A DNA stretch of 52,734 bases from a virus, in UHGV virus genome UHGV-0124967; one strand, 5' to 3'. The notes below the pieces were generated by a model. It saw only the letters and a list, made by a program, of their open reading frames with translations, made no database searches and had not been told where the DNA came from. A program made the translations under genes and the position numbers. Numbering within the stretch: the stretch's first letter is position 1; the number at the start of each line of letters is the position of its first letter. Positions 2,101-43,275 of this stretch are shown here, piece by piece.

Positions 2101-2130
2101 AAAAAAAACGGGGCTTATGCCCCGTTTTTT
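2101..2130. terminator. bidirectional rho-independent terminator
   Basis: A8-CGGGGC-TTAT-GCCCCG-T6: perfect hairpin flanked by A-run and T-run; follows the plus-strand moron and overlaps the J stop codon. Confidence 0.75.
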
Positions 2131-5100
2131 ATGCTGTCGTTGATGTTCTAAATGATCCGGTGCCTCTTGCTACTATCATTGTTGGAGAATACAACGCGGT
2201 ACAATATGCGTATCCTTTAGATGATGATGTTTGAGGACAATATATTTTCCCGATAATATCTGATGCTTCTAAACCAGAAAAAGCGCATTGCACTGTTAAT
2301 GTGCATCCACCATAAGGCACGTAATATGAAATTGTTTTGTTTTTATCTCCGCAACTAAACGTTACGTTATAAATGGATCTATATTCACCAGACATTAATG
2401 AAATAGTCGCCATAAGCATAACTGATTTCGTCAATGCATTATCCGTGCTGTCTTTATATGTGATGGTTGCGCTATAACTTTCGTTATGCCCAAGCACTCG
2501 ATCTGGACCAACCCCCATGTTAGCAACGTCACCGACAAATGACTTTGCCTCTACTGTACCTTTAAACTTCCCGCTTGTGGCCTGAATCTCACCAGTGAAT
2601 TTACCAGATGTTGCGTACACCGTACCGCGTACAGTGACGTTGTTGAACTCCGCATTGCCGTTTTTATTTAGCATCCAGCCATCCGAACCAGCTTTATAGT
2701 TGGTTGACTGAATTTGCTGCGCAATCTTCGCGGTAGTGATTGATGCGTCTCTGATCCACGCATCACGGATGTAGCAAGCACCGTTAGTAACATAGAACGG
2801 GGTCTGATAGGAGCCACCTGCCGCAGTCATAAGCACGAAACTGTCAACGAGGAAAATACACCGCGATTGAACGTTAGTCCCGCTACCAGTAAGGCCGAGC
2901 GACATTCCTGTAGCGTATTTCATACCGTTTTTATCAGTGGCAATCTTAATTGAATATGACGCATCAACGTTACCTTTGAAGTCAGTCAGTGCTTTTGATG
3001 TCGTTTCTATCGCCGTTGTGTTTCCGTTAATAGTTACTTTCAACTGGTCGATTCTGGTTGACAATGCCTCGTCTGCCGTTGCCATAGCCTGTGACCATTC
3101 CGTGATGCTTGAGTTTACATCGTCGAAAGATGCCGAGATCTGGCCAAATTTTTCCGCGCTTGATGTTTCATGCGTAGAAAGTGCAGTTGACACTTCGGAT
3201 ACTTTCGAATTAATCGTACTGGTAAGCGATGAGTTAAGGCTGCTGATTGCGTCAGTGCGTGCATTCTTCTCATCTGCGATCGCTTTATCCATCCTAGTTA
3301 CGTTGCTTGTCACCTTGCTATCGAGCGTGGAAATTGACGCATTAACCCCGCTAATAGCTTCTGCGCGTGTGCTTGATTCGTCAGCGATAGCTTGATCAAG
3401 ACGGCTAACACTGGCATTTGTGTTATTTTCAAGCGTTGTTAAATCAGCTTTAACCTCTGTTATTGCGTCGCTTCTTGCCTGCGTTTCATCTGATATTGCC
3501 TTATCGAGGCGCTTAACACTGGCGTCAGTTTTCTTGTCAAGCGTTGAGATACTTGCGTTCACGTCGCTGATAGCCTGAGTACGCGCACTTGTTTCGTCTG
3601 CAATTGCCCGATCAAGACGGTTTACGCTGGCGTCAGTTTTCTTGTCAAGATTGCTTATTGAGGCATTTACACCGTTAATAGCTTCAGCGCGAGCGCTGGC
3701 CTCGTCAGCTACTGCGCGTTGCACATTAGAGATCTGACCTTTAAGGTTTGTGTCCATCACATTCATTTCTGCCGTGATGGTTTCCAGTGATTCCGCTGTC
3801 GCTTTTTTCTCTTCAGCGATAACGTTGTCAATGCGGTCAATTTCCGCTTTCGTCTCTGTCCTGCCTTTCTTGTACTGAGCGGTAAGAGTTACGCGAGTGT
3901 TAGTCTGTGCAAGCGAGTTATTAATAAGAGCAAGTGAGGCGTTTTGCAGACTTGCTTTTGCTTGCGCCAGTTCGCTGCCAACTTTTTCGCTAGACACCTC
4001 CAGCGAGTCGATTCTCGACTCATGCTGTCCAATATCATCGGAGTTTTCCTTAACTATTTTATAAAGATCTTCCGTTTCTTTTTTGAGCGTATCAGTATCA
4101 GCTTTTATTGATCCTGTTTCTATGGTTAGGTTGTCAGTAGCAGTTTTAAGGTCATTCGTAGCGCTTTCGATAAGATCAGTGCGGTCGCCTAGATCTTTAA
4201 TGTCACCAACCATTTCTTTAAATTGTTCGGAATTCATTACGTCTTTGGTGACGTAATCGGTAATTTCATCAAAGTTTTCTGTTGGCTTACCTGACGCTTC
4301 CACAAAGTCAGACACACCAAAAGCGTTACGCGCGCGCACATAAACGTAATATGTGTGACCTGTATTCATGCCGCCAAACGTCCACTGATGACCACGCCCG
4401 GTATATTGTGCTTTAGTGGTTATTGATGCCGGATCAGTGATCTGCGTTTCACCTGAGTAATAAAACTCGTAACTGGTATCAGTGGTGAGCATTGTTCTGC
4501 TGATCGGGTAAACTGTAGCCTGGAATACACCGGGAACCCAATTAACGCCAACTGGGGCCGCTGGTGCGCCAATAACCAGATCGACAATGCTTTCCGCACC
4601 CTTCATGCCCGTGTCATTTCTGCCACGAATGCCTAATGAGTAGTTGCCAGCATCAATGCCATAAAAATCATAACTGTAATTCGTGGTTTCGTAGCTTTTA
4701 ACTACAGCGCCTTCGGCGTTATACACGCGAATCTCAAAGGTCAGGCGACGCGTTGTCGTCTGTGTTTCCCATGTTGCGCGACATTGAACCGTTTCAGATC
4801 CAACGTTTAACACCTTCAGATTTTCAATGTTCGGCACGCGGAAGTGATTAAGCGTGTCGTTATTGATCTCGAAGATTGCGCCATTATCGACTTCGGCCTG
4901 CTTATGTGGATCATGCTGTGCGGCCTCGATGGTGTATACGCTGTTATTTTCTGTTTCTGCTACACTGGTGATTCGACATAAAACGGGTTTTGCTGCGTTG
5001 GTTGATACAGCAAAAACAGTGCCGTTACGAATCCACGCCGGGGCGGCTGCAAGGGTGATAATGTTCCCGTTAACTCCGATGATCTGGTGTTTTTTAAATT

Positions 5101-6682
5101 TACCATCGCTATCAAGTAAGCTGATGGTGTCGCCAGCCGCGATATATTCAGAATCAACCTTGTCGACCGTGATCGCTCTGCCATTGTTCGCCACGATGCG
5201 ACCGCCTAAACGAGCGCCTGCGCGATTATTATCGAGGATCTCGATTATATCCCCCGGCGTAAAGTGAATGGCGTCACGGGCCATTTTAAATGTGAATTTT
5301 GACGGCTCGCGTTTCGCTGTTTCGATCAGCCATTTACCAGCGCGGTGCGCTTGCCCGCGTGAAGTGCAACCGAACGCCTCCAACGTGGTTTCGTTATAAC
5401 CATCACGGGCGATTAGTTTATCATCTGCGACATATTCTTTTGATTGCTCCCAGCCGTTTTCAGGGTCAGTCCAGGATACGATCACGGCGTTGTAGCATTC
5501 TGCGCGTGCGATACTTGAACGAGTAAACGCGCCATCAACGACGTTTGCATTTGTGATGGTGGCGATTGGATCTTGTGGCGCATCAATCATCACGGTAAGA
5601 CGTTGTCCGTCCCATAACGCGATACCACGGAACATACCTGCGATGTTATCCAGTAGGTCGCGGGCGCTCATTTGCTCCGTAATGTAAGCGTTAAGCGTCA
5701 TGCGAGGTTCAAGGCCACCATAGCCATCATCAACCAACTGATCGCAGTATTGAGAAAGCACGTACAAAGCGCCATCATCAACATCAATGTAACCAGCATG
5801 TCGAGCAAGTCCAAAGCGCTCGTTTTTAACCAGATACCGGAAAAGCCATGCAGGGTTATTGGTATACGCCTTTTTAAATCCACCAAGCCATAAACCTGAA
5901 TATGTGCGCGTTTCAGGGTTGTAGTTGTCAGGCACATCAACAATCAGGCCGCGAAGGTGATAGGTGCGGGTAGGCGTATCAGTATACTGATCATGGTCAA
6001 TTACGGCGCCAGCTACAGCGGTATGAGGATAAGACAGATTATCATCTATTATTTCGCTGTAACTACTCCACCGCGTATCATTCCGCAATAGATCGCTGTT
6101 GCTGTCTGGTGTTGTGCGACGAACGCGAATATCAAACGGTTTTTCATCCGGCGCTTTAATGATGTGAGCTTCCAGGTATTCACCGCTTTGTTTACCAGGG
6201 CCAATGTGTATGTCTTTAATCGGCGACCACGTAGAAGATGATGACGGTTTAACATCAACCATCAACATGACGGATGTATTACATTGATTGCCCTTTTCAT
6301 CTGACTGAACGAGAGCATCAACACCAAGATTCAACCTGACGCGGGTAACGTTTGGATCTGAAACAGTCCTGATTATTGGTGTGTCGTGAGTTACCTTTGC
6401 GTTGACAATAACGGTTGACTCAATGGCGTTAAAACCATTAATCGGCGATTGGTCAGCCGTGCCGTTGCGCCAGGCTATACTAATCCCCGGAATTGATGTA
6501 TTCCCGTTTGCGTCAGTAACAGGAGTGTCATTAAGCATCACGTCATTCAATGGCGCTTTCTGGTTTACCGGACCGTATATCGGCCCTTCGCTGAGAATAT
6601 CTAAAACACGATAAAACTGTTTGTGATACAGGTTATCGTTCAATAATGTTGGTGTTTTGGCTTTGCCGCCGCCGCTACTCAT
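2129..6682 (-). CDS. J: tail tip / host specificity protein J, 1517 aa, with extended C-terminal region
   Basis: Very large ORF after tail assembly genes I/K/L; AGGAG RBS; N-terminal two-thirds reads like lambda J family; C-terminal third has coiled-coil repeats and a distal domain. Confidence 0.9.
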   Translation of the reverse strand: MSSGGGKAKTPTLLNDNLYHKQFYRVLDILSEGPIYGPVNQKAPLNDVMLNDTPVTDANGNTSIPGISIAWRNGTADQSPINGFNAIESTVIVNAKVTHDTPIIRTVSDPNVTRVRLNLGVDALVQSDEKGNQCNTSVMLMVDVKPSSSSTWSPIKDIHIGPGKQSGEYLEAHIIKAPDEKPFDIRVRRTTPDSNSDLLRNDTRWSSYSEIIDDNLSYPHTAVAGAVIDHDQYTDTPTRTYHLRGLIVDVPDNYNPETRTYSGLWLGGFKKAYTNNPAWLFRYLVKNERFGLARHAGYIDVDDGALYVLSQYCDQLVDDGYGGLEPRMTLNAYITEQMSARDLLDNIAGMFRGIALWDGQRLTVMIDAPQDPIATITNANVVDGAFTRSSIARAECYNAVIVSWTDPENGWEQSKEYVADDKLIARDGYNETTLEAFGCTSRGQAHRAGKWLIETAKREPSKFTFKMARDAIHFTPGDIIEILDNNRAGARLGGRIVANNGRAITVDKVDSEYIAAGDTISLLDSDGKFKKHQIIGVNGNIITLAAAPAWIRNGTVFAVSTNAAKPVLCRITSVAETENNSVYTIEAAQHDPHKQAEVDNGAIFEINNDTLNHFRVPNIENLKVLNVGSETVQCRATWETQTTTRRLTFEIRVYNAEGAVVKSYETTNYSYDFYGIDAGNYSLGIRGRNDTGMKGAESIVDLVIGAPAAPVGVNWVPGVFQATVYPISRTMLTTDTSYEFYYSGETQITDPASITTKAQYTGRGHQWTFGGMNTGHTYYVYVRARNAFGVSDFVEASGKPTENFDEITDYVTKDVMNSEQFKEMVGDIKDLGDRTDLIESATNDLKTATDNLTIETGSIKADTDTLKKETEDLYKIVKENSDDIGQHESRIDSLEVSSEKVGSELAQAKASLQNASLALINNSLAQTNTRVTLTAQYKKGRTETKAEIDRIDNVIAEEKKATAESLETITAEMNVMDTNLKGQISNVQRAVADEASARAEAINGVNASISNLDKKTDASVNRLDRAIADETSARTQAISDVNASISTLDKKTDASVKRLDKAISDETQARSDAITEVKADLTTLENNTNASVSRLDQAIADESSTRAEAISGVNASISTLDSKVTSNVTRMDKAIADEKNARTDAISSLNSSLTSTINSKVSEVSTALSTHETSSAEKFGQISASFDDVNSSITEWSQAMATADEALSTRIDQLKVTINGNTTAIETTSKALTDFKGNVDASYSIKIATDKNGMKYATGMSLGLTGSGTNVQSRCIFLVDSFVLMTAAGGSYQTPFYVTNGACYIRDAWIRDASITTAKIAQQIQSTNYKAGSDGWMLNKNGNAEFNNVTVRGTVYATSGKFTGEIQATSGKFKGTVEAKSFVGDVANMGVGPDRVLGHNESYSATITYKDSTDNALTKSVMLMATISLMSGEYRSIYNVTFSCGDKNKTISYYVPYGGCTLTVQCAFSGLEASDIIGKIYCPQTSSSKGYAYCTALYSPTMIVARGTGSFRTSTTA
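3200..3730 (-). repeat. about five tandem ~35-codon coiled-coil repeats inside J
   Basis: Protein repeats AIADETSARTQAISDVNASISTLDKKTDASVKRLDK and variants; the DNA repeats are visible by eye. Coordinates approximate. Confidence 0.6.
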
Positions 6683-6695
6683 GGTTTTTCTCCTG

Positions 6696-7226
6696 TTAAC
6701 TTACAACGTCTAAGGCGTCTTTATTGTTGCTTGTGTCTATGCCTAACGATCCGACGTTTGAACCTATTTTCATTTCACCTAATAGTATTGGCACTGGTCT
6801 ACCCTGGCCCACCTTGTTTTCAATGCTGGTGTAGGTGTTGTTCGTTATGGTGTTATCTTGTGCGCTTTCTGCCGATGTTTTTATCTTCATGTTGCGGGAC
6901 ATAAAGATTGAGAACGCAACGCTAACCACCGAAACACCAATCAGGATCCAGCCTACAACACCAATCCCAGCAATACCGCCTTCAACTACTGGCGCAATAA
7001 TGACGGTAGTTCCGTCAGGGTATTTACTATTAACCGCTGCCGGGGCCGTCTTTTCGTTATAATCTTTCCCGGCAATCCGTAACCGCAAAGGTGTATTTAA
7101 AAAAGCCTTCTTGAACTCCTGATTCTGCGCGGTCAATAGGCTAAGTCCTTGTGCTGGCGTATCAACGTTTAAACACACTTTGCCGTAATATCTTCGAAGA
7201 TTGCCCGTAAATCTAAATTTGAGCAT
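6696..7226 (-). CDS. I: tail assembly protein, lambda I-like
   Basis: 176 aa between K and J; GGAG RBS; central hydrophobic stretch GGIAGIGVVGWILIGVSVVSVAF as in I-family proteins. Confidence 0.6.
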   Translation of the reverse strand: MLKFRFTGNLRRYYGKVCLNVDTPAQGLSLLTAQNQEFKKAFLNTPLRLRIAGKDYNEKTAPAAVNSKYPDGTTVIIAPVVEGGIAGIGVVGWILIGVSVVSVAFSIFMSRNMKIKTSAESAQDNTITNNTYTSIENKVGQGRPVPILLGEMKIGSNVGSLGIDTSNNKDALDVVS

Positions 7227-7900
7227 TTGTCAGATCTCCATATTGAATGCGTTTGTCGAACATACGCGGGCCGCATTTGCTCGCGGCGGCTTAGCAGTCC
7301 GGCATTGTCATGATGCAAAACAGTGTTATCGCCCAGGTAAATCATCGCGTGACATGGGTCAGCACCCTTGAACGGCTGGCGAATAATCACGTCACCAGGC
7401 TGAATGCTTTGCGCATCAACCATGAAAAACCCGTTCAATGGCAGGTTTTTTATGTACAGGTTTTCCCCACGCAGCCACCACCCATCGTGGCGTTCAAAGT
7501 CAGGCAGATCCACGCCGCAAAGGTGATAGGCGTCACGAAAAAGCGAGTAGCAATCTGTTTTCCCGTGTTCAAATTTACGGCCTAACAGGTGCGCCACCGG
7601 GCGGAATTTCCTCACCATGCCACCGGAACATAAAAACCACGGCAGGCCGGAAATAACCTGCTGTTGTCGATCCCGTGCCGACAATACCGGAATATCTTCA
7701 ACGTGAGAGTGGAAAACGGCTGTTATAACGCCCAATTCGTCAGCTTTGATATAATCGTCAGGCGAGATTTTAAAGCTGTTGTGCGGCGTTTCAGACACGT
7801 TAGCGCACGGGTAAAAATAATCGTTATCTATCACCAGCCCGCACACTTCCTCGCGCGGGTGGGCTGCTGCATAGCGAATCATTTTATCTTCAAGTGCCAT
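7169..7900 (-). CDS. K: tail assembly protein K (JAB/MPN-like plus NlpC/P60-like)
   Basis: First ATG with RBS (AAGGTGG) is at 7900, 2 nt after the L stop; track ORF extends to 7996 with a non-ATG start. JAMM-like motif FHSHVEDIPVLSARD. Confidence 0.8.
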   Translation of the reverse strand: MALEDKMIRYAAAHPREEVCGLVIDNDYFYPCANVSETPHNSFKISPDDYIKADELGVITAVFHSHVEDIPVLSARDRQQQVISGLPWFLCSGGMVRKFRPVAHLLGRKFEHGKTDCYSLFRDAYHLCGVDLPDFERHDGWWLRGENLYIKNLPLNGFFMVDAQSIQPGDVIIRQPFKGADPCHAMIYLGDNTVLHHDNAGLLSRREQMRPAYVRQTHSIWRSDKCSNLDLRAIFEDITAKCV

Positions 7901-7902
7901 AA

Positions 7903-8607
7903 TCAACCCACCTTGCTCGATCCTGGGAAACATGAAATTGGTAACGGATTCGGGCGCGGGAAACGTAAACGGCAACCGCTCAGGCGGTGGCTGCATTTAT
8001 CCAGCTTTGGATCGCTGGTCGATTCGTCTTTATCAGTAGCTACAGGGCCGCCACTGTATCCGCAACCGTCGCCGCGATATTGCCATTGGCAAACGTCAGC
8101 AAGGATTGTGCGCCCTGGGATAACCGCCTTGTCAGCATCAATTGGCGTTGACAGCTCATATTGCACCTGGTCGGCTGTTTCTTCGCTCATCGCCTCAACG
8201 ACGTAAAAAGACACCGCCTCGATAGACGGATCTGCATCCGGGTTGCCGTTGGGGAAGTTGATGGCGTCCAGGTATTTTACTTCCACCTGGCGGCGTGTAA
8301 CTTTCATTCCTCGCAGGTCGTTGAAATCGTTATTCATCCCAGTGATTAGGCCGCCAATGTTGGCTACAACCATTTGCGGGCGTGAATAGACACCCTCGTT
8401 TTTCATTTCGAAGCCAGTGGCCTCGATAGGGTAGCTGTTGTAAGCCACCCCCTTCCAGATAACCGGGCCGTAATGGCCATTCACGCCGGAATGGAAGCGG
8501 ATAACCTCGCCACCCAGGGGCGTGAGGTCTAATTCAAACAAGTCAATTACCGCGCCGACTCCGGCATCGACGGAATCAATAATCATTTCTCTCGGAATAT
8601 TGCGCAT
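7903..8607 (-). CDS. L: minor tail protein L
   Basis: 234 aa, AAGGTGAG RBS, position upstream of K; Cys-rich C-terminus typical of L family. Confidence 0.8.
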   Translation of the reverse strand: MRNIPREMIIDSVDAGVGAVIDLFELDLTPLGGEVIRFHSGVNGHYGPVIWKGVAYNSYPIEATGFEMKNEGVYSRPQMVVANIGGLITGMNNDFNDLRGMKVTRRQVEVKYLDAINFPNGNPDADPSIEAVSFYVVEAMSEETADQVQYELSTPIDADKAVIPGRTILADVCQWQYRGDGCGYSGGPVATDKDESTSDPKLDKCSHRLSGCRLRFPRPNPLPISCFPGSSKVG

Positions 8608-8661
8608 TTTCTCACCTTGTCATTCTGTGATCTGCGTCACGCTAAATCATACCAAAATGGA

Positions 8662-8690
8662 TTGATCGCGGTTTTTACAATATGTATATT
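8662..8690 (+). promoter_or_regulatory. putative sigma70 promoter for plus-strand moron operon
   Basis: TTGATC (8662-8667), 17-bp spacer, TATATT (8685-8690) with TG at 8683-8684; about 45 bp upstream of first moron gene. Confidence 0.45.
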
Positions 8691-8736
8691 TTACTCAAAC
8701 GGAAGCATAGTTAACAAAATGGCGCGGAGGTGCGTT

Positions 8737-8901
8737 ATGACTGAAAAGCTATGGAAGTTGACGGTATTCATGACAGACGGTAGGGAAAAGGTTATCGCCC
8801 TGTATGACGACGAGGGTGAAGCATTGGTTGACGCGCTTTTACTTGCTGAGGATGACCGCCTTTTGGGATACCAGATCGAACCTGTCAAATATGAGGGTTA
8901 G
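8737..8901 (+). CDS. hypothetical small acidic protein, 54 aa (moron)
   Basis: ATG 8737 with GGAGG 6 nt upstream; inside longer track ORF 8617..8901. Confidence 0.5.
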   Translation: MTEKLWKLTVFMTDGREKVIALYDDEGEALVDALLLAEDDRLLGYQIEPVKYEG

Positions 8902-8905
8902 CAAA

Positions 8906-9259
8906 ATGCAAAAGTATCGTCTTGATGTCTGGATGGCTGGTAGTGATGATTGGGAAGGTTACGGTTTGCATGACAGTTACGAAATGGCGGTCGAGGAAGG
9001 AGAAAAACTCGTTCGATTCTTCGGTCGCGCCAGAGAATTCAAAATTACTCCAGTACAAATACCGGATAAGGTGGAAGATATGAACCCGAAAGATATTAAT
9101 GGTAGCTTCACTGCTTATTATGCAGATTCTATGGACCAGTCTTGCCCTGGTGAAATACACGCAAAAGGTTTCCCGGCTGACGATCCAGAAGCAAAACGCG
9201 AATACGAAAAAGCGGCGAAAGATTTCTGTATCGATAACCTTTCAGCATTCGATAAATAA
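8906..9259 (+). CDS. hypothetical protein, 117 aa (moron)
   Basis: ATG 8906, 5 nt after previous stop, GAGGGT RBS; loosely resembles the preceding protein. Confidence 0.55.
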   Translation: MQKYRLDVWMAGSDDWEGYGLHDSYEMAVEEGEKLVRFFGRAREFKITPVQIPDKVEDMNPKDINGSFTAYYADSMDQSCPGEIHAKGFPADDPEAKREYEKAAKDFCIDNLSAFDK

Positions 9260-9268
9260 GGCGGCAAC

Positions 9269-9517
9269 ATGGGGCGGCGCAATTACGGTGATTATGTGTA
9301 CACGTTGAAACAGGCCGCCCGCCTCGTCGGTTATCATGAGCACGAATTTATTGATTTGATGATTGAGCGCGGGATACTGTACCAGGTCTGTTTAACGCTG
9401 TACCCAAAAGCGAAATACCTACAGGAAAAGTTATTCATCATCATGACAGATGAAAACCAGGTTAACCATTCATTCGTCACTGATAAGGGCGTTAATTATC
9501 TGCGTGATAACTTATAG
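9269..9517 (+). CDS. hypothetical protein, 82 aa (moron)
   Basis: ATG 9269 following previous gene; same strand and spacing. Confidence 0.5.
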   Translation: MGRRNYGDYVYTLKQAARLVGYHEHEFIDLMIERGILYQVCLTLYPKAKYLQEKLFIIMTDENQVNHSFVTDKGVNYLRDNL

Positions 9518-9527
9518 GTGACAGATT

Positions 9528-9644
9528 ATGAAAATAGAAGTTTTGGCGCTAATAATAATGGGATTGATAGTATTTGGCGTTCATTCTGTAGATCTGGACT
9601 GGAAAACGATAGCAGAAAATATAGCATTAATGGAAATGGAATAA
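9528..9644 (+). CDS. putative small membrane protein, 38 aa
   Basis: ATG 9528 with AGGTGA RBS; MKIEVLALIIMGLIVFGVHS hydrophobic; below ORF-track size cutoff. Confidence 0.35.
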   Translation: MKIEVLALIIMGLIVFGVHSVDLDWKTIAENIALMEME

Positions 9645-9650
9645 TAATAA

Positions 9651-9677
9651 CCCCGCTTCTCGCGGGGTCGTGTTTAT
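9651..9677 (+). terminator. rho-independent terminator ending the plus-strand moron operon
   Basis: CCCCGC-TTCTC-GCGGGG hairpin followed by T-rich TCGTGTTTAT. Confidence 0.6.
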
Positions 9678-9874
9678 ACGCCATCAAGCAAAAACAAAAC
9701 TTCCTTCCCTTCTCTGGATCTGCACCCCACATACCCATCACCAACGTCGTGAAGATACCATATATCGCCATTATCAGCTTTTACAGCAAGGTCGTTGATC
9801 TCATAGTCATCAAACAATGTGAAAGCGTCAGTTTTGTCCACTACACAAGTCCCGTACATATTAACCACCATCAT
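9674..9874 (-). CDS. hypothetical protein, 66 aa, translationally coupled to M
   Basis: ATG at 9874..9872 overlaps the M stop (ATGA). Confidence 0.4.
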   Translation of the reverse strand: MMVVNMYGTCVVDKTDAFTLFDDYEINDLAVKADNGDIWYLHDVGDGYVGCRSREGKEVLFLLDGV

Positions 9875-10224
9875 CTAACAACTTGCTCAAACGTTGCGTT
9901 AAGCGTGTATACATGACCGTCTTTCGTCATACTCCAGCTACGGCAAACAAAAAGCCTTTGCACGCCATCCATCGACGGCGACCAGTAAAAAGCCTCGACA
10001 GCGCCGCGCGCCATCAAGAATGCTTCAGCCTGGATCGCCACGTTTCCACCATCACCGCATCCTGCGCTACTGCCTTTAAAGACCAGGGTGTAGCTGTCAA
10101 GCAATGTGTTGATCCCTTTCGCCTGGCGCTGTTCATAACCATCACCAAGTTTGACAACGGACACATTCGGTTCCCTGGTTACGCTGTAGCTTCGTTGCGG
10201 CGTCCATTTGAACACTTCCGGCAT
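9871..10224 (-). CDS. M: minor tail protein M
   Basis: 117 aa between tape measure and L; G-rich RBS. Confidence 0.75.
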   Translation of the reverse strand: MPEVFKWTPQRSYSVTREPNVSVVKLGDGYEQRQAKGINTLLDSYTLVFKGSSAGCGDGGNVAIQAEAFLMARGAVEAFYWSPSMDGVQRLFVCRSWSMTKDGHVYTLNATFEQVVR

Positions 10225-10285
10225 AAAACCCCCCCATAAGTTACATTTTGTATATATCTTTACGCGCTTCTACGCGAAAAATAAG

Positions 10286-10302
10286 ATCATTGTCACAATG
10301 AT
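10286..10302. promoter_or_regulatory. perfect palindrome ATCATTG-TCA-CAATGAT (possible operator)
   Basis: 7-3-7 inverted repeat between divergent M and plus-strand moron genes. Confidence 0.3.
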
Positions 10303-10324
10303 TATAGCTAGTTTACAAAATGGC

Positions 10325-10353
10325 TTCACATAGTACGCAACAAGATGTATATA
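10325..10353 (+). promoter_or_regulatory. putative promoter for plus-strand moron pair
   Basis: TTCACA (10325-10330), 17 bp, TG-n-TATATA (10346-10353); about 40 bp upstream of ATG 10394. Confidence 0.4.
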
Positions 10354-10393
10354 GAAAGCAAGAAGAAAGTAGTACCAACGAAGGAGGCCCAAA

Positions 10394-10549
10394 ATGAAAC
10401 GCTATGTAGTAGTAATGCTAAATAACGCATTCGAACAAGTGGAAATAGCAATCGTTAAGGGTTTCGACGACGCATTCAAATACGGTCAATTCATGATGAA
10501 TGCGAAAGAAGATGAATACCGGGACTTCTTCCTGAAGGCACTTAACTAA
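10394..10549 (+). CDS. hypothetical small protein, 51 aa (moron)
   Basis: ATG 10394 with AAGGAGG 6 nt upstream; below ORF-track cutoff. Confidence 0.45.
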   Translation: MKRYVVVMLNNAFEQVEIAIVKGFDDAFKYGQFMMNAKEDEYRDFFLKALN

Positions 10550-10566: not shown

Positions 10567-10821
10567 ATGAAACTGGTAGCGATTGACAGAAATCTGAAAG
10601 CACAGAAAAACGCACATGACCGGATCATCAAGAAAGGTAAGGAATTACTTAAAGCCTTTCTGAGAAAAGAAGTTTACCCCAAAAAGTTACGCGACGGTTA
10701 CGGATACAAAATGGATATCAATCTTGATTGGAGGCTGTTTAGCGAAGATTTGAAGGTTTGGTTAATTGTTGAGCACCATGCCTATAACAAGTTATGTGGC
10801 GTGAAAGGCACTCATAAGTGA
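10567..10821 (+). CDS. hypothetical basic protein, 84 aa (moron)
   Basis: Track ORF; same strand directly downstream of 10394 gene. Confidence 0.5.
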   Translation: MKLVAIDRNLKAQKNAHDRIIKKGKELLKAFLRKEVYPKKLRDGYGYKMDINLDWRLFSEDLKVWLIVEHHAYNKLCGVKGTHK

Positions 10822-10874: not shown

Positions 10875-10913
10875 AAAAATAACCCCGGCATTGCACCGGG
10901 GTTTAGTTTATTT
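10875..10913. terminator. bidirectional rho-independent terminator
   Basis: CCCCGG-CATTGCA-CCGGGG hairpin (10883-10901) with A-run before and T-rich after; overlaps tape-measure stop. Confidence 0.65.
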
Positions 10914-13250
10914 GCGGCGAGGTTGCAACATTCCGCCTGGTCTTTGAGATTCCCTTGTTATCATTTTCATGGCTACACGTTCCATTGTTAATTCAAGTCT
11001 GCGGCTGTCTTCGTCGCTGAATCCGTTCGTGGTCTGAATGCTGATACTGACAGGCATACTAATACCGCCACCGCCGCCAATATCACGGCCCGGAATAACT
11101 CTGCCGTTCTCGCCAGGAATCATATATTGATTCCCGTTAGATGTCTGGAATAGCTCCGGCCTGTTGTGTTCCCCTACACGGTACATATTGCCACCAATGA
11201 CGCTACCACCATTAAAGCGACCGCCGCCAAAAATTGACGTAGCCAGCGACATGATCGCAGTGAGTGCCGCAGAACCAGCCGCCGCCCATGCGCCGCCAGT
11301 TGACGCCGCTGTTGCCGCCGCCGCCGGGGCCGCCGCCGCAGCAATCTGGCCTTGCGCCGCTACCGCGCCCGCCGTGGTACTTGCCTGAGTCGCTTTGCTT
11401 TGCGTTTCCATCATGATCTGATCTGCTATCCAGTTTGCAGCTATGTCTGAAAGCCTGTTACCGATATTCCCGAGGATATTGCTGCCTAAGTTAGCAAAAA
11501 CATCACTCAATGATTGAGTACCATTTAACAGGCCAACAAGTGCATTGCTCATACCACCTTTAAGGCCATTAACGCAATCACCGATAAGGCTGTTTGTGTC
11601 GCTTTGCGCCTGCCATTGCTCCCACTTCAGATCGCGGATCTGTTGCTCATAGGCTAACAGTTCCTGTTTCTGTTGCGCTTCCGTCACGCCCAGGTCGATA
11701 AGCATTTGCTTACGGACGGCCCATTCATTTTGAACCTGCTGAATAGGGTCTACTTCGCCCTTTAGCTGATCCATCGGGCTTACTATTTGCTCCCATTTGT
11801 CGCGCAATTCCTCTACCGGAATTTGTGCTAATTCTTCCTTTAGTTCCTTACCTATCCCTTTTTGCGCGGCGCGGTACTCAAGGAGAGTGATTTTACCCTG
11901 GGCGAATGCAGCATCAATGGCCTTGCCGCTCTCTAACGCTTTGCGCATAGCGGCGGCGTCTTTGTTGTACTGGTCAGAAACGCTTATACCTTTATCGCCA
12001 AGACGATCAGCTTCAGATTTCTTCTCTTTTTTCTGTTTTTTCGGTTTGTCTACTGGCTTGCCGGATCCGGTAATCGCTCCGTCATTGGCGGCATTCTGTT
12101 CATTTTTCCTTGCTTCTTCTGTAGCCTGGATTGCTGCGGTCAGATCATCCTGTAGTTGCATGACCTTGCCAACGGTCTTACCGTATTTCTTCTCGTAGTT
12201 GCTGTTATATTCGTCGGTTTGCTCTCCTACGACCTCCTTCATCCATTTGTAGGCATCCATTAGTGCCTTGATTGGCGTCACCATTGCGATGATCTTCTCG
12301 GCTACCTCGCCAGCCTTGATTCTGACATCTTCAAACATGTCGATGAATTCGCCACCAGCCGTCTTCAGGGTGTTAAAGCAGGTTTTAGCGAAATCAGCGC
12401 CTTCACTTAAAGCCTTAACACCTTTCGTTACAAGATCGATACCAGCAACAACCGTATCGGATACACCGAAAAGATCATCCAATTGCTCAACAAGTCCCAT
12501 AACCTCGACTTTAAGCTCATTCAGGGCCATGCCGGATGTGCGCGGCAACTGCGCAAACTTCTCGTTTGTTTCCTGCGTAGCCGCCTGGATTGCGTTAACC
12601 ATCCTTTCTGCCGTGATCTTACCGTCCAGCATTTCGGCGCGGAATTGGCCCATTGATAACCCCATCTGGCGTGCCATTGTCTGTACGATGGTCGGGGTGT
12701 TTTCTAACAGGCTGTTGAATTCTTCAGCACGCAACACGCCACCGTCGATAGACTGACGGAATTGACGCATTGAGTTTGACATCTGCTCCGCTGACGCGCC
12801 GCCCAACGCCCCCATTTTCTGAATCGTACCTACCAGGTTAAGCAATTGCCCTTCAGTGGCGGACGTGTTCTTCAGTGAGATAGCTAAGCCTTGCCACAGA
12901 TCCCCGGTATCCTTCATGCTTTGGCCTGTTTCTTTTGATATTGCTTTCAGGCCATCAAAAACCCGTCCGGCGGACTCCGCATCGCCCGTAAGCATTTTGA
13001 TTTTTACGCGAAGCATTTTTGCTTGCTCCGCCATATCCATAAATTGACGCACGGCCTCCGCAGCAATTAGCAAATGGATAACCCTGGTCAGTGCCTTGAT
13101 GGATGTTTTCAGGGTGTTTACCTGGCGGTCAGCCTGTTTTGCGCCGCGCTCTATACGCCCAAAGGCCTGGTCTGCCTGTCGTTGTGCAACGAGAAGTTGA
13201 CCAGTTTTCGCATCAACTTCGTAATAAATTGTACCTACACTGGTAGCCAT
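10908..13250 (-). CDS. H: tail tape measure protein
   Basis: 780 aa; alpha-helical Ala/Gln-rich body, Gly-rich C-terminus; between chaperone and M. Confidence 0.85.
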   Translation of the reverse strand: MATSVGTIYYEVDAKTGQLLVAQRQADQAFGRIERGAKQADRQVNTLKTSIKALTRVIHLLIAAEAVRQFMDMAEQAKMLRVKIKMLTGDAESAGRVFDGLKAISKETGQSMKDTGDLWQGLAISLKNTSATEGQLLNLVGTIQKMGALGGASAEQMSNSMRQFRQSIDGGVLRAEEFNSLLENTPTIVQTMARQMGLSMGQFRAEMLDGKITAERMVNAIQAATQETNEKFAQLPRTSGMALNELKVEVMGLVEQLDDLFGVSDTVVAGIDLVTKGVKALSEGADFAKTCFNTLKTAGGEFIDMFEDVRIKAGEVAEKIIAMVTPIKALMDAYKWMKEVVGEQTDEYNSNYEKKYGKTVGKVMQLQDDLTAAIQATEEARKNEQNAANDGAITGSGKPVDKPKKQKKEKKSEADRLGDKGISVSDQYNKDAAAMRKALESGKAIDAAFAQGKITLLEYRAAQKGIGKELKEELAQIPVEELRDKWEQIVSPMDQLKGEVDPIQQVQNEWAVRKQMLIDLGVTEAQQKQELLAYEQQIRDLKWEQWQAQSDTNSLIGDCVNGLKGGMSNALVGLLNGTQSLSDVFANLGSNILGNIGNRLSDIAANWIADQIMMETQSKATQASTTAGAVAAQGQIAAAAAPAAAATAASTGGAWAAAGSAALTAIMSLATSIFGGGRFNGGSVIGGNMYRVGEHNRPELFQTSNGNQYMIPGENGRVIPGRDIGGGGGISMPVSISIQTTNGFSDEDSRRLELTMERVAMKMITRESQRPGGMLQPRRK

Positions 13251-13303
13251 GATTTAACCTCATGCAAAAATGTGATCTGTGTATCTATTTTATACAAAAT
13301 GGC

Positions 13304-13332
13304 TTTACTTCAACGACTACATTTTGTATAAA
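13304..13332 (+). promoter_or_regulatory. putative promoter for lipoprotein moron
   Basis: TTTACT (13304-13309), 17 bp, TG-n-TATAAA (13324-13332); partner inverted copy at 13291-13302 faces tape measure. Confidence 0.45.
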
Positions 13333-13377
13333 GAAGCCAAAGGGAATGGTCAGTAAATCAAGTTAGCGAGGTGGGTT

Positions 13378-14037
13378 ATGAAACGGTTAGCAAAAGTGGC
13401 AATGATTGCGGCGGTATTGGGTCTGGTTGGTTGCAATGAGGATAATGAAAAAGCGCCTATAGTGACCACTCAAGAACAACAAGCATTAGCAGAGAAAAAT
13501 GCTAAATGGCTTGCAGAACAACAAGCAAAACAAGCCGCATATGAGGCACAGTTAGCAAAAGAAAAAGCTGGTAAACAGTGGCTTGTGGTCGAAAGAAAAG
13601 ATGATATGCAGGACACAAAAAACGTGTTCCTTTTCGTGAAAGCAGAACATTTCAGCGGAAGTCTTGATGCTTTCCCTACACTGAAAGCACGGGATGAAAA
13701 CAAACCTGTATTAACAATCGCTTGCCAGGGTAATAAAACAAAAATGTTCGTAGCATGGTCAAACCATGTAACTGACGCTGGGGACACTACTTATATTAAC
13801 TACCGGATCGGCGATCACAAAGCTGTAGCTACTGAATGGAGTCGGTCAACTAACTATAAAGCTCTTGGATTATGGAACGGCAAAAAAGCCATTCCAATGA
13901 TTAAAAAACTGGTTAACGAAAAACAATTTATCATTGAAGTAGTGCCGGAAGCTGGCGACATTGAGAAAGCAGTGTTTAACATTGATGGTCTTTATAACCA
14001 CATCGACAAAGTGAAAAACGCTTGCAACTGGAATTAA
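13378..14037 (+). CDS. lipoprotein, 219 aa (tail-region moron), function unknown
   Basis: ATG 13378 with GAGGTGG RBS; signal peptide with lipobox LVGC; coiled-coil-like segment; AT-rich compared with neighbours. Confidence 0.7.
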   Translation: MKRLAKVAMIAAVLGLVGCNEDNEKAPIVTTQEQQALAEKNAKWLAEQQAKQAAYEAQLAKEKAGKQWLVVERKDDMQDTKNVFLFVKAEHFSGSLDAFPTLKARDENKPVLTIACQGNKTKMFVAWSNHVTDAGDTTYINYRIGDHKAVATEWSRSTNYKALGLWNGKKAIPMIKKLVNEKQFIIEVVPEAGDIEKAVFNIDGLYNHIDKVKNACNWN

Positions 14038-28536: not shown

Positions 28537-28617
28537 TTTTCTACCCTCCGCATCGTTCTCTCTTCAGCTTCTTTATAACAAAATGGCACTGCCGAAACAA
28601 TGCCATTTCGTAAACCT

Positions 28618-28633
28618 TGTGATACAGATCACA
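28618..28633. promoter_or_regulatory. CRP-consensus-like palindrome TGTGA-N6-TCACA
   Basis: TGTGATACAGATCACA; adjacent to inverted repeat AAATGGCA...TGCCATTT (28582-28608). Confidence 0.35.
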
Positions 28634-34595: not shown

Positions 34596-34754
34596 AATGC
34601 TCCCTCCCTTTAAGGTGATTTCTACGCATTTCAGCGCTGCCGGATTTTTAAAGAGCATTTCGTTTGCTTGAAGTATACAAAATGGATACACGTAAACAAG
34701 ACGAAAAGCGCCATTATGTGACCTGTATCACACAATGACGCCATTTTGTAAACT

Positions 34755-37906: not shown

Positions 37907-38322
37907 GCCTCACCTCATATGGTATTCAATAAACCACCTAATAAACAGGCATAAGGCAATAAAACACCAGCAACAGCACATATAAAACAATGTGTCGTCC
38001 ATAATTAAGCCTCAATAACACCATAATCAAACGTGCCTAAATACTGTTCGATACTTACAACCTCAATACCATCAATGCACCGTTTCTACACAGACACCCT
38101 GCTTTCATTTTCCCGGAAGTGCATATTAGAAAGCACTTCATCGGCTGGATAGCCTTTCCCAGCGACGTAGGCATCGAGACCTACTCCACCCTCAACACAA
38201 TAAAGCATTAATTCGCTGGCCATCTTGTTTTCCTCCGCGCCGTAAACCTTTTGATTTCAGTTCACAAAACGGATTCGCGATCACAACACAAAATGTATTT
38301 TTATGTGATCGCCATCACTATG

Positions 38323-42003: not shown

Positions 42004-42465
42004 AATCTGATCTCCGTATATCCTTGATAAAAATTAATAAAAATCATCTTCGTTAATTGCCGCACTTCCAGCGGCTGACCAGATTGTTAATGAGCGGCTT
42101 AACATCTTTCAACTAATCCCGCAATCATCGCCGTTCCCGGCGTGACCTTGCTCACTCCAAGCAAGCTGACTCGTCGCCTTGCGTGCGGTTTCGTGGGGGA
42201 TGTAACGCTTTAAACACCCCATGCGCCTTGTTATCAGTGCCGCTTTCGGTCCCCCATCGGGGAGTTACTCCACGGTTGACAAGGTGTTAAGCCTGATTTT
42301 TAAAGTGCCAGGAAGTTGCTTTTGTTACCTGCGACCTTCCTTTGACTCGCAATATACGCCCCGTAAAACATCGAGTCAATCCATTTTGTATACTTTTTTA
42401 AAATATTTTATATGCTATTGATATTTAAACAATAAATAACGTTTTCTGTTTACGTTTTGGCGTTT

Positions 42466-43150: not shown

Positions 43151-43210
43151 GTCGCTACCCTATAACCTCAAAAAAGTTTGATGCAAGTCACAAAACGTGT
43201 ATTTTAAGCC

Positions 43211-43238
43211 TTGATCTTAAAATTCCATTTTGTAAACT
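43211..43238 (+). promoter_or_regulatory. putative rightward early promoter (pR-like)
   Basis: TTGATC (43211-43216), 16 bp, TG-n-TAAACT (43231-43238); followed by palindromes. Confidence 0.45.
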
Positions 43239-43275
43239 TGCAGACAAGGTAAGGCCATACTTGCAAAGACGCAAG
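43237..43275. promoter_or_regulatory. candidate operator palindromes
   Basis: CTTGCAGACAAG (43237-43248) and CTTGCAAAGACGCAAG (43260-43275); similar GCAAG/CTTGC half-sites at 42161-42183. Confidence 0.35.

Follow-up and report, generated by a model that had tools for sequence, protein, structure and literature searches.

Morons of lambdoid phages, among them the gene 15 element in the tail operon of HK97, were reportedly described by Juhala in 2000 and by Cumby in 2012. In the gene 15 moron, extra DNA with a differing GC content, bounded by a promoter and a terminator of its own, lies among the tail genes; the gene product, gp15, is a small inner-membrane protein (PMC3594210). Here, we describe a locus of similar layout in the UHGV virus genome UHGV-0124967, analysed over its whole length of 52,734 nucleotides (nt; hereafter, the window). 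This locus is a cassette of four small genes (g1 to g4) which separates tail gene L from tail gene M and is read from the opposite strand. It has a predicted promoter of its own (Pcas), a predicted terminator, a GC content differing from that of the tail genes and, in g4, a putative small membrane peptide. We consider it somewhat probable, from the sequence comparisons described below, that the cassette is an independently transcribed operon of the moron type, fixed in its phage family, which would probably be expressed in lysogens and act in interactions with the host or with other phages.

The closest described counterparts are gp74-gp71 of phage mEp021 and gp99-gp96 of phage mEp013, which form an orthologous cassette at the same position (PMC11893012). 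Identity to these orthologues was 72% for g1, 67-72% for g2, 94-95% for g3 and 79% for g4 at the amino-acid (aa) level; mEp021 differs by one extra orphan gene (gp72) between g2 and g3. In both records, the genes are annotated only as 'hypothetical' or 'putative antirepressor'. The paper on the mEpimmI group of phages gives no analysis of the unit, and its supplementary files do not mention these genes (PMC11893012). The window is itself that of a temperate Escherichia coli phage of the mEpimmI group (mEp021-like), and matches seven sequenced temperate coliphages (mEp021, mEp013, mEp010, mEp044, mEp515, mEp554 and MagusPhagus) at 85-90% DNA identity. This group is a Nus-dependent, non-lambdoid family; among the Nus-dependent coliphages of human faeces, it is reportedly as common as lambdoid phages, and ultraviolet (UV) light fails to induce most of its lysogens (PMC11893012).

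Genes, conservation and distribution of the cassette

The original prediction, made from the letters of the window, had placed a separate four-gene transcription unit on the opposite strand between L and M. All four open reading frames (ORFs) are present at the predicted sizes (Table 1), and the predicted promoter and terminator are both conserved in relatives. The four genes have Shine-Dalgarno sequences and are separated by gaps of 4, 9 and 10 nt. The ATG of g1 lies behind GGAGGTG, position 8617 being a mechanical ORF start only. The ratio of nonsynonymous to synonymous substitution rates (dN/dS), determined by codon-level comparison with 7-11 relatives, was 0.24 for g1, 0.18-0.19 for g2, 0.11 for g3 and 0.33 for g4, the last value being drawn from few substitutions; tail genes K, L and M gave 0.04-0.12. 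With ratios of 0.11-0.24, g1, g2 and g3 are clearly coding, g4 is probably coding and, as judged from these ratios, the operon genes are under purifying selection. The GC content of the cassette was 43.0%, versus 53.2% for L, 52.0% for M and 50.1% for K; the window mean of 45.8% is close to that of the cassette.

The cassette was found, with its gene order kept, in the same L|M slot in all seven sequenced phages and in 34 of the 35 E. coli genomes examined. A query consisting of the intergenic region plus the cassette matched 35 genomes; the match extended into the cassette genes in 34 of them and covered the promoter region only in MS 21-1. An L gene of the window type was present in 34 of 5426 complete E. 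coli genomes. In the prophage of E. coli MS 21-1, L and M are adjacent and the equivalent of window positions ~8723-9862 is missing; this deletion covers the four genes, the terminator and a further small gene, orf66, and leaves the promoter region of 113 base pairs (bp) in place. On this sequence comparison, orf66 belongs to the same insertion/deletion block as the cassette. The earlier view of an insertion between normally adjacent genes was thus borne out for MS 21-1, where L and M do adjoin, but every other relative examined carries the block. Nor did the idea of an occasional moron stand, since practically all members of the phage family carry the cassette and the published mEpimmI pangenome lists the KilAC-like gene among its manually identified core genes (PMC11893012).

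Slot and gene order were unchanged around the most divergent g2 homologue (49% identity). Variants included an alternative first gene, a truncated g2, an extra orphan between g2 and g3, and the presence or absence of g4 or orf66. Because the L|M slot is filled nearly family-wide, the cassette appears to be a family trait with internal mosaicism. There was no sign of spread among unrelated phages, g1 and g2 being found only in E. coli and in gut contigs of this phage type; outside the phage family, relatives exist for orf66 and the KilAC domain only.

As predicted, the products of g1 and g2 are acidic, with isoelectric points of 4.22 and 4.57, respectively. Their supposed loose likeness to each other is weakly supported: BLASTP returned nothing, hhalign gave P = 0.017-0.023 with a probability of 2%, and 12 of 300 column shuffles scored equally. 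Both belong to PHROG families without assigned function and, by database comparison, both are orphans restricted to the mEpimmI phage family. For g1, 19 protein clusters were found, all from E. coli or gut metagenomes, and in some relatives the gene is replaced by an unrelated 52-aa gene. Homologues of g1 (54-66 aa, acidic) are named 'transporter' by NCBI, a name supported by no Pfam, NCBIfam or PHROG model. For g2, there were 59 clusters, with 16 representatives among 1.8 billion proteins; a search of these representative proteins with a g2 alignment profile yielded no informative distant relatives.

Two parts were distinguished in g2: a hypervariable N-domain (residues 1-55; six sequence types, mean identity 50%), modelled as strand-strand-helix-strand with a predicted local distance difference test score (pLDDT) above 90; and a C-domain (residues 75-117), 84% identical on average, in which C80, H85 and C108 are invariant or nearly so. 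In 38 of the 46 g2 pairs whose C-domains were at least 95% identical, the N-domains were less than 60% identical. The DNA encoding the N-domain (~8897-9070) is swapped as a module, as illustrated by the comparison with E. coli M1/5, in which the flanks of a replaced segment of ~170 bp are 100% identical. Since synonymous divergence (dS) is saturated and dN/dS is ~0.1-0.2, the pattern is best read as old alleles exchanged by recombination; positive selection on the N-domain was not supported by these same values. A Foldseek search of the g2 model against PDB returned nothing at E < 0.05. Against viral models, the N-domain matched many uncharacterised small phage proteins, including DUF7336, with target TM-scores of 0.7-0.85 and E values of 4e-3 to 4e-2.

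The third gene, g3 (phrog_5689; 87-98% identity among relatives), encodes a KilAC region only, without an N-terminal AntA/AntB, Bro-N or Rha domain. It matched PF03374 with 28.1 bits (cutoff 25.3; E = 2.7e-6) over profile positions 23-105 of 108. Its model is helical, with an N-terminal segment resembling a helix-turn-helix (HTH), and a sequence search against solved structures returned nothing. The only experimental function that we found for a KilAC domain is that of Listeria AriS, whose KilAC domain, expressed alone, inhibits the SOS response, probably via RecA (PMC9043618).

The prediction that g4 is a membrane peptide agrees with a hydrophobic N-terminal stretch (residues 4-20; grand average of hydropathy 1.05), which fits a membrane or signal peptide. 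All Pfam and PHROG matches of g4 were above E = 0.02, and an NCBIfam search of the cassette proteins gave nothing significant. The suggested role in defence gained no support, as no PADLOC-DB defence model matched g1-g4, orf66, or the neighbouring genes g5 and g6 at E ≤ 0.1.

The hairpin downstream of g4 is stable on both strands (free energy -14 to -16 kcal/mol, z ~ -3.7); relatives share its stem and differ in its loop, and the mEp021 record annotates a terminator on both strands at the equivalent position. Beyond it lies orf66, which had been overlooked in the original prediction and whose start overlaps the M stop codon (ATGA). Its dN/dS was 0.10. Homologues with 40-50% identity occur in virulent T1-like phages (Drexlerviridae), as small early genes near the helicase gene; one of them is rtp57 of phage Rtp (2501-2689 of its compared segment). 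Because these homologues are located in early regions, orf66 is a mobile accessory gene, and its assignment as a tail gene was rejected.

The promoter region and related modules in the window

The promoter pattern by itself was not above chance, with 10 sites in 3.2 kb versus 6.3 ± 2.2 expected. Within Pcas, TTGAT and TATATT were invariant in 13 relatives, with a dS of 0.3-1.2 in the neighbouring genes, and the 130-bp spacer between L and g1 was better conserved than the genes around it. Upstream of Pcas, a palindrome, TGTGATCTGCGTCACG, fits nine of the ten half-site positions of TGTGA-N6-TCACA, the textbook consensus for the cAMP receptor protein (CRP). Its half-sites were invariant or nearly so in the 13 relatives, while the N6 spacer varied. 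Relative to the predicted start site, its predicted centre is at -62.5 to -64.5 in the window and 1 bp less in mEp021-type relatives. The pattern TGTGA-N6-TCAC gave six strand hits at four sites in the window, versus 0.33 expected (0 of 100 shuffles); the other sites were in minus-strand intergenic gaps at 28618, 34717 and 38304, with a weaker copy at 43177 in the immunity region. An RNA hairpin was rejected as an explanation of the palindrome (free energy -4 to -6, z -1.2 to -1.8), and because such a hairpin would be weak, a DNA-binding site is more likely.

Two short boxes, likewise conserved in the 13 relatives, complete the region: box 1, CCAAAATGG, and box 2, ACAAAATGG. The motif of these boxes, CCATTTTGK, is present in 15 copies in the window versus 1.5 expected. 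Right after box 2, four of the 12 relatives diverge (three loci with an alternative first gene, together with the MS 21-1 deletion, of which one boundary is concerned). Since relatives diverge directly at this point, the promoter module also seems to behave as a recombination junction. A candidate promoter directed towards L, with an extended -10 element (CCATTTTGG TATGAT), was considered and rejected as the main cause of the intergenic conservation: unlike the plus-strand hexamers, its TATGAT is not invariant, being lost in MFDS and LSU61 and reading CATGAT in a third relative.

The best match to Pcas within the window was a PR-like early promoter (score 39, versus 16 ± 2.5 for shuffled sequences; 0 of 1000), which precedes an N-like gene with an arginine-rich motif (R17, R19, R20, R21 and R24). 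The two promoters align over ~75 bp, comprising the box, the -35 hexamer, the spacer length, the -10 hexamer and the leader, and Pcas is, on this alignment, a paralogue of the PR-like promoter. The box also abuts the -35 hexamer at the PR-like promoter and at the promoters of two other opposite-strand accessory units. The arrangement of a palindrome or half-palindrome, the box, a -35 hexamer, 17 bp and TATAWW was likewise observed ahead of the g5/g6 genes and of a VasI-like lipoprotein gene. The g6 product matches a ParE-like toxin domain (PF24732, E = 9e-12), and g5/g6 is probably a toxin-antitoxin pair; this unit is conserved in relatives and is followed by a terminator-like hairpin at 10881-10903. 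PF11319, matched by the lipoprotein, is the VasI type VI secretion-associated domain, and mEp021 has a different, 138-aa gene in that slot.

Four opposite-strand units thus divide the tail operon into segments, with a related promoter module at each junction. Members of this module family have CCATTTTGK/ACAAAATGG next to the -35 or -10 hexamer, often with the CRP-consensus palindrome. Three early-type promoters have the palindrome centre ~60 bp ahead of their predicted start, and two of the three are followed by boxA-like GCTCTTTAAAAA sequences (nut-like).

The left end of the window cuts through a fibre gene whose start is at 1646 (minus strand); at the right end are the integrase gene and an attachment region in dgcM. 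The mechanical ORF of K (7169-7996, minus strand; 275 aa) would overlap L by 94 nt. As relatives annotate 243 aa, the true start of K is probably near 7900. A plus-strand gene at 1844-2089 converges with J; its 81-aa product has an N-terminus resembling a signal peptide and matches phrog_2243 (E = 1.6e-4). According to the mEpimmI paper, exclusion genes of the Lpp/Cor type are found at this position (PMC11893012). In mEp021, an HNH endonuclease gene lies between I and J (718-1284 of its compared segment) and another adjoins the helicase gene; in the window, no HNH endonuclease gene separates I from J. No match to Rfam families or tRNAs was obtained when the window was scanned.

Table 1. Coordinates of the cassette, its promoter region and other features of the window (position 1 is the first nucleotide).
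Feature	Position	Strand	Description
g1	8737-8901	+	54 aa, acidic; phrog_29559
g2	8906-9259	+	117 aa, acidic
g3	9269-9517	+	82 aa, stand-alone KilAC (ANT, PF03374)
g4	9528-9644	+	38 aa, one hydrophobic segment, acidic tail; optional
Bidirectional intrinsic terminator	9650-9668		Common to the cassette and the convergent M-orf66 unit
orf66	9674-9874	-	66 aa, acidic; phrog_3249
Pcas, TTGATC-17-TATATT	8662-8690	+	Predicted; 9/12 consensus match
CRP-consensus-like palindrome	8626-8641		Centred ~62-64 bp upstream of predicted cassette start; 19 bp upstream of L start codon
Box 1	8652-8660	+	Abuts -35 hexamer of Pcas
Box 2	8714-8722	+	5' leader; left recombination boundary of the variable block
Candidate extended -10 promoter towards L	8646-8660	-	Back-to-back with Pcas; weak
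PR-like early promoter, TTGACT-17-TATATT	42372-42344	-	Followed by boxA-like sequence and N-like gene
g5/g6	10394-10549 and 10567-10821	+	Between M and tape measure; 51-aa protein, then 84-aa basic protein
VasI-like lipoprotein	13378-14037	+	Upstream of tape measure; lipobox LVGC; PF11319, E = 1.7e-16; phrog_1848
Promoter-module family	1686-1707, 8626-8722, 10282-10360, 13271-13335, 28565-28633, 34665-34753, 38304-38319, 42344-42395, 43177-43245
J	2129-6682	-	Tail gene
I	6696-7226	-	Tail gene
K	~7169-7900	-	Tail gene
L	7903-8607	-	Tail gene
M	9871-10224	-	Tail gene
Tape measure	10908-13250	-	Tail gene

Proposed function and alternative explanations

In the operon that we propose, Pcas, a promoter of the sigma-70 type, would drive the four tightly spaced genes, and the hairpin would end both this operon and the convergent M-orf66 unit. 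The prophage would probably transcribe the operon, and cAMP-CRP, bound at the upstream palindrome, may tune its expression; at the late stage, the cassette would be silenced by antisense read-through of the Q-antiterminated tail transcript. The products of g1-g4 would be cytoplasmic protein-binding or regulatory factors and not parts of the virion, with g4 as an optional membrane peptide. The g2 protein could combine a specificity module with a constant module, its target being some variable partner, for instance a factor of the host or a phage in competition. The g3 protein would modulate host or prophage regulation and, by analogy with the KilAC domain of AriS, could damp RecA/SOS. The independent structure of the unit, and a promoter type shared with the toxin-like pair and the lipoprotein gene, speak for expression in lysogens. 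If the cassette is indeed expressed in lysogens, it could explain their UV non-inducibility or their competition with other phages.

Several observations weigh against this proposal. Near-universal presence is unlike that of a classical, horizontally scattered moron. The palindrome misses the canonical position of a class I CRP site (near -61.5, or a further helical turn upstream) by 1-3 bp, and relatives differ by 1 bp in the spacing between it and the -35 hexamer. The g3 model is of modest confidence (pLDDT 74); when it was compared with PDB by Foldseek, MerR/Xis-like HTH proteins ranked first at a non-significant E > 2, and g3 matches KilAC at the profile level only, with no detectable pairwise similarity to Listeria phage proteins. 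The C-domain of g2 was likewise predicted with low confidence. Finally, the cassette could be silent in lysogens, because Pcas is paralogous to a PR-like promoter that is necessarily repressor-controlled.

This last point leads to a possible, though doubtful, alternative, in which the cassette is an early-lytic operon for host takeover or anti-defence: the prophage repressor would silence Pcas together with PR, and the operon would fire on infection or induction, with acidic g1 and g2 neutralising host defence or competitor proteins and the g2 N-domain tracking variable targets. The ~75-bp alignment of Pcas with the PR-like promoter is in its favour, as are the nature of g1 and g2 (small, acidic, fast-diversifying orphans) and the resemblance of the g2 N-domain to a widespread fold of small phage proteins that includes DUF7336. 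However, Pcas has not retained the 8-bp inverted repeat found on either side of PR (TTGACTCG...CGAGTCAA); this was read by eye and is only a hint. Moreover, promoters of the same family precede the toxin-antitoxin-like pair and the lipoprotein gene, which usually act in lysogens; toxin pairs and lipoproteins are gene types typical of lysogen-expressed accessory genes. A still less likely reading sees in the L|M cassette a second prophage regulatory region, functionally comparable to immI of P22, with a nutrient-sensing (cAMP-CRP) promoter, a stand-alone KilAC protein damping RecA/SOS, a modular g2 whose swappable N-domain is directed against variable proteins of competing prophages or host defences, and promoter modules serving also as recombination junctions that shuffle accessory genes through the tail operon. 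If this were true, SOS damping by g3 would help to account for the failure of UV to induce most mEpimmI lysogens.

The hydrophobic 38-aa g4, the HTH-like N-terminal segment of g3 (with its non-significant MerR/Xis-like top fold matches) and the ParE-like module next door would suit a toxin-antitoxin or abortive-infection module, with g4 as membrane toxin, g1/g2 as its restraint and g3 as transcriptional autoregulator. We hold this to be quite improbable, given that PADLOC gave no match, that g4 had no tblastn match in three of the ten compared relatives which keep g2 and g3, and that its family matches lie above the E value given above. Least probable of all is a role as accessory proteins of the virion or of tail assembly whose genes happen to lie on the other strand. 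The constant position between M and L throughout the family would fit such a role, but the cassette runs against the tail genes and has a predicted promoter and terminator to itself, the block is absent from the MS 21-1 prophage, and the orf66 homologues are found in early regions of virulent phages. In addition, none of gp70-gp74 is annotated as a virion protein in mEp021, a phage whose particles have been examined by mass spectrometry, in support of the original prediction of a moron; the cassette proteins are not among the 16 virion proteins mapped for that phage, although proteins below 14 kDa could be missed on a 10% gel.

Comparison with described systems

The cassette fits the moron definition (PMC3594210) because it has a predicted promoter and terminator of its own, a GC content of 43% versus 52-53%, and a relative in which the site is empty. 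Unlike a classical moron, it stands out by its near-universal presence in the family, by having genes on both strands and by the lack of outside relatives of g1 and g2. Compared with HK97 gene 15, it comprises four genes on the opposite strand and is fixed in its family, g1 and g2 having no homologues elsewhere. As regards Listeria AriS, g3 passes the PF03374 gathering threshold, and the KilAC domain of AriS alone suffices to block SOS; g3 differs in its length of 82 aa, in the absence of an N-terminal domain, in a similarity limited to the profile level and in a host of a different phylum.

The promoter modules recall the PeSL cassettes of T4-type phages, in which a repeated promoter-containing motif flanks variable orphans and the breakpoints are at the motif (PMC2839356, PMC4122927). 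The differences are another sequence, a temperate siphovirus-like phage and a CRP-like palindrome instead of a stem-loop terminator, with one boundary compared. These shared modules suggest how accessory genes may slot into a late operon without breaking it, and g2 would be a compact natural case in which recombination exchanges the specificity domain attached to a constant one.

The genes were already annotated in GenBank in the mEp phages and the moron concept is well established. The cassette makes a reasonable subject for experiments in a group of gut phages that is common, and is not a categorically new kind of element. What is new here is its fixation throughout the family, the precise swapping of a domain in g2, a KilAC gene standing alone in such a setting, and the family of promoter modules that carry CRP-like sites.

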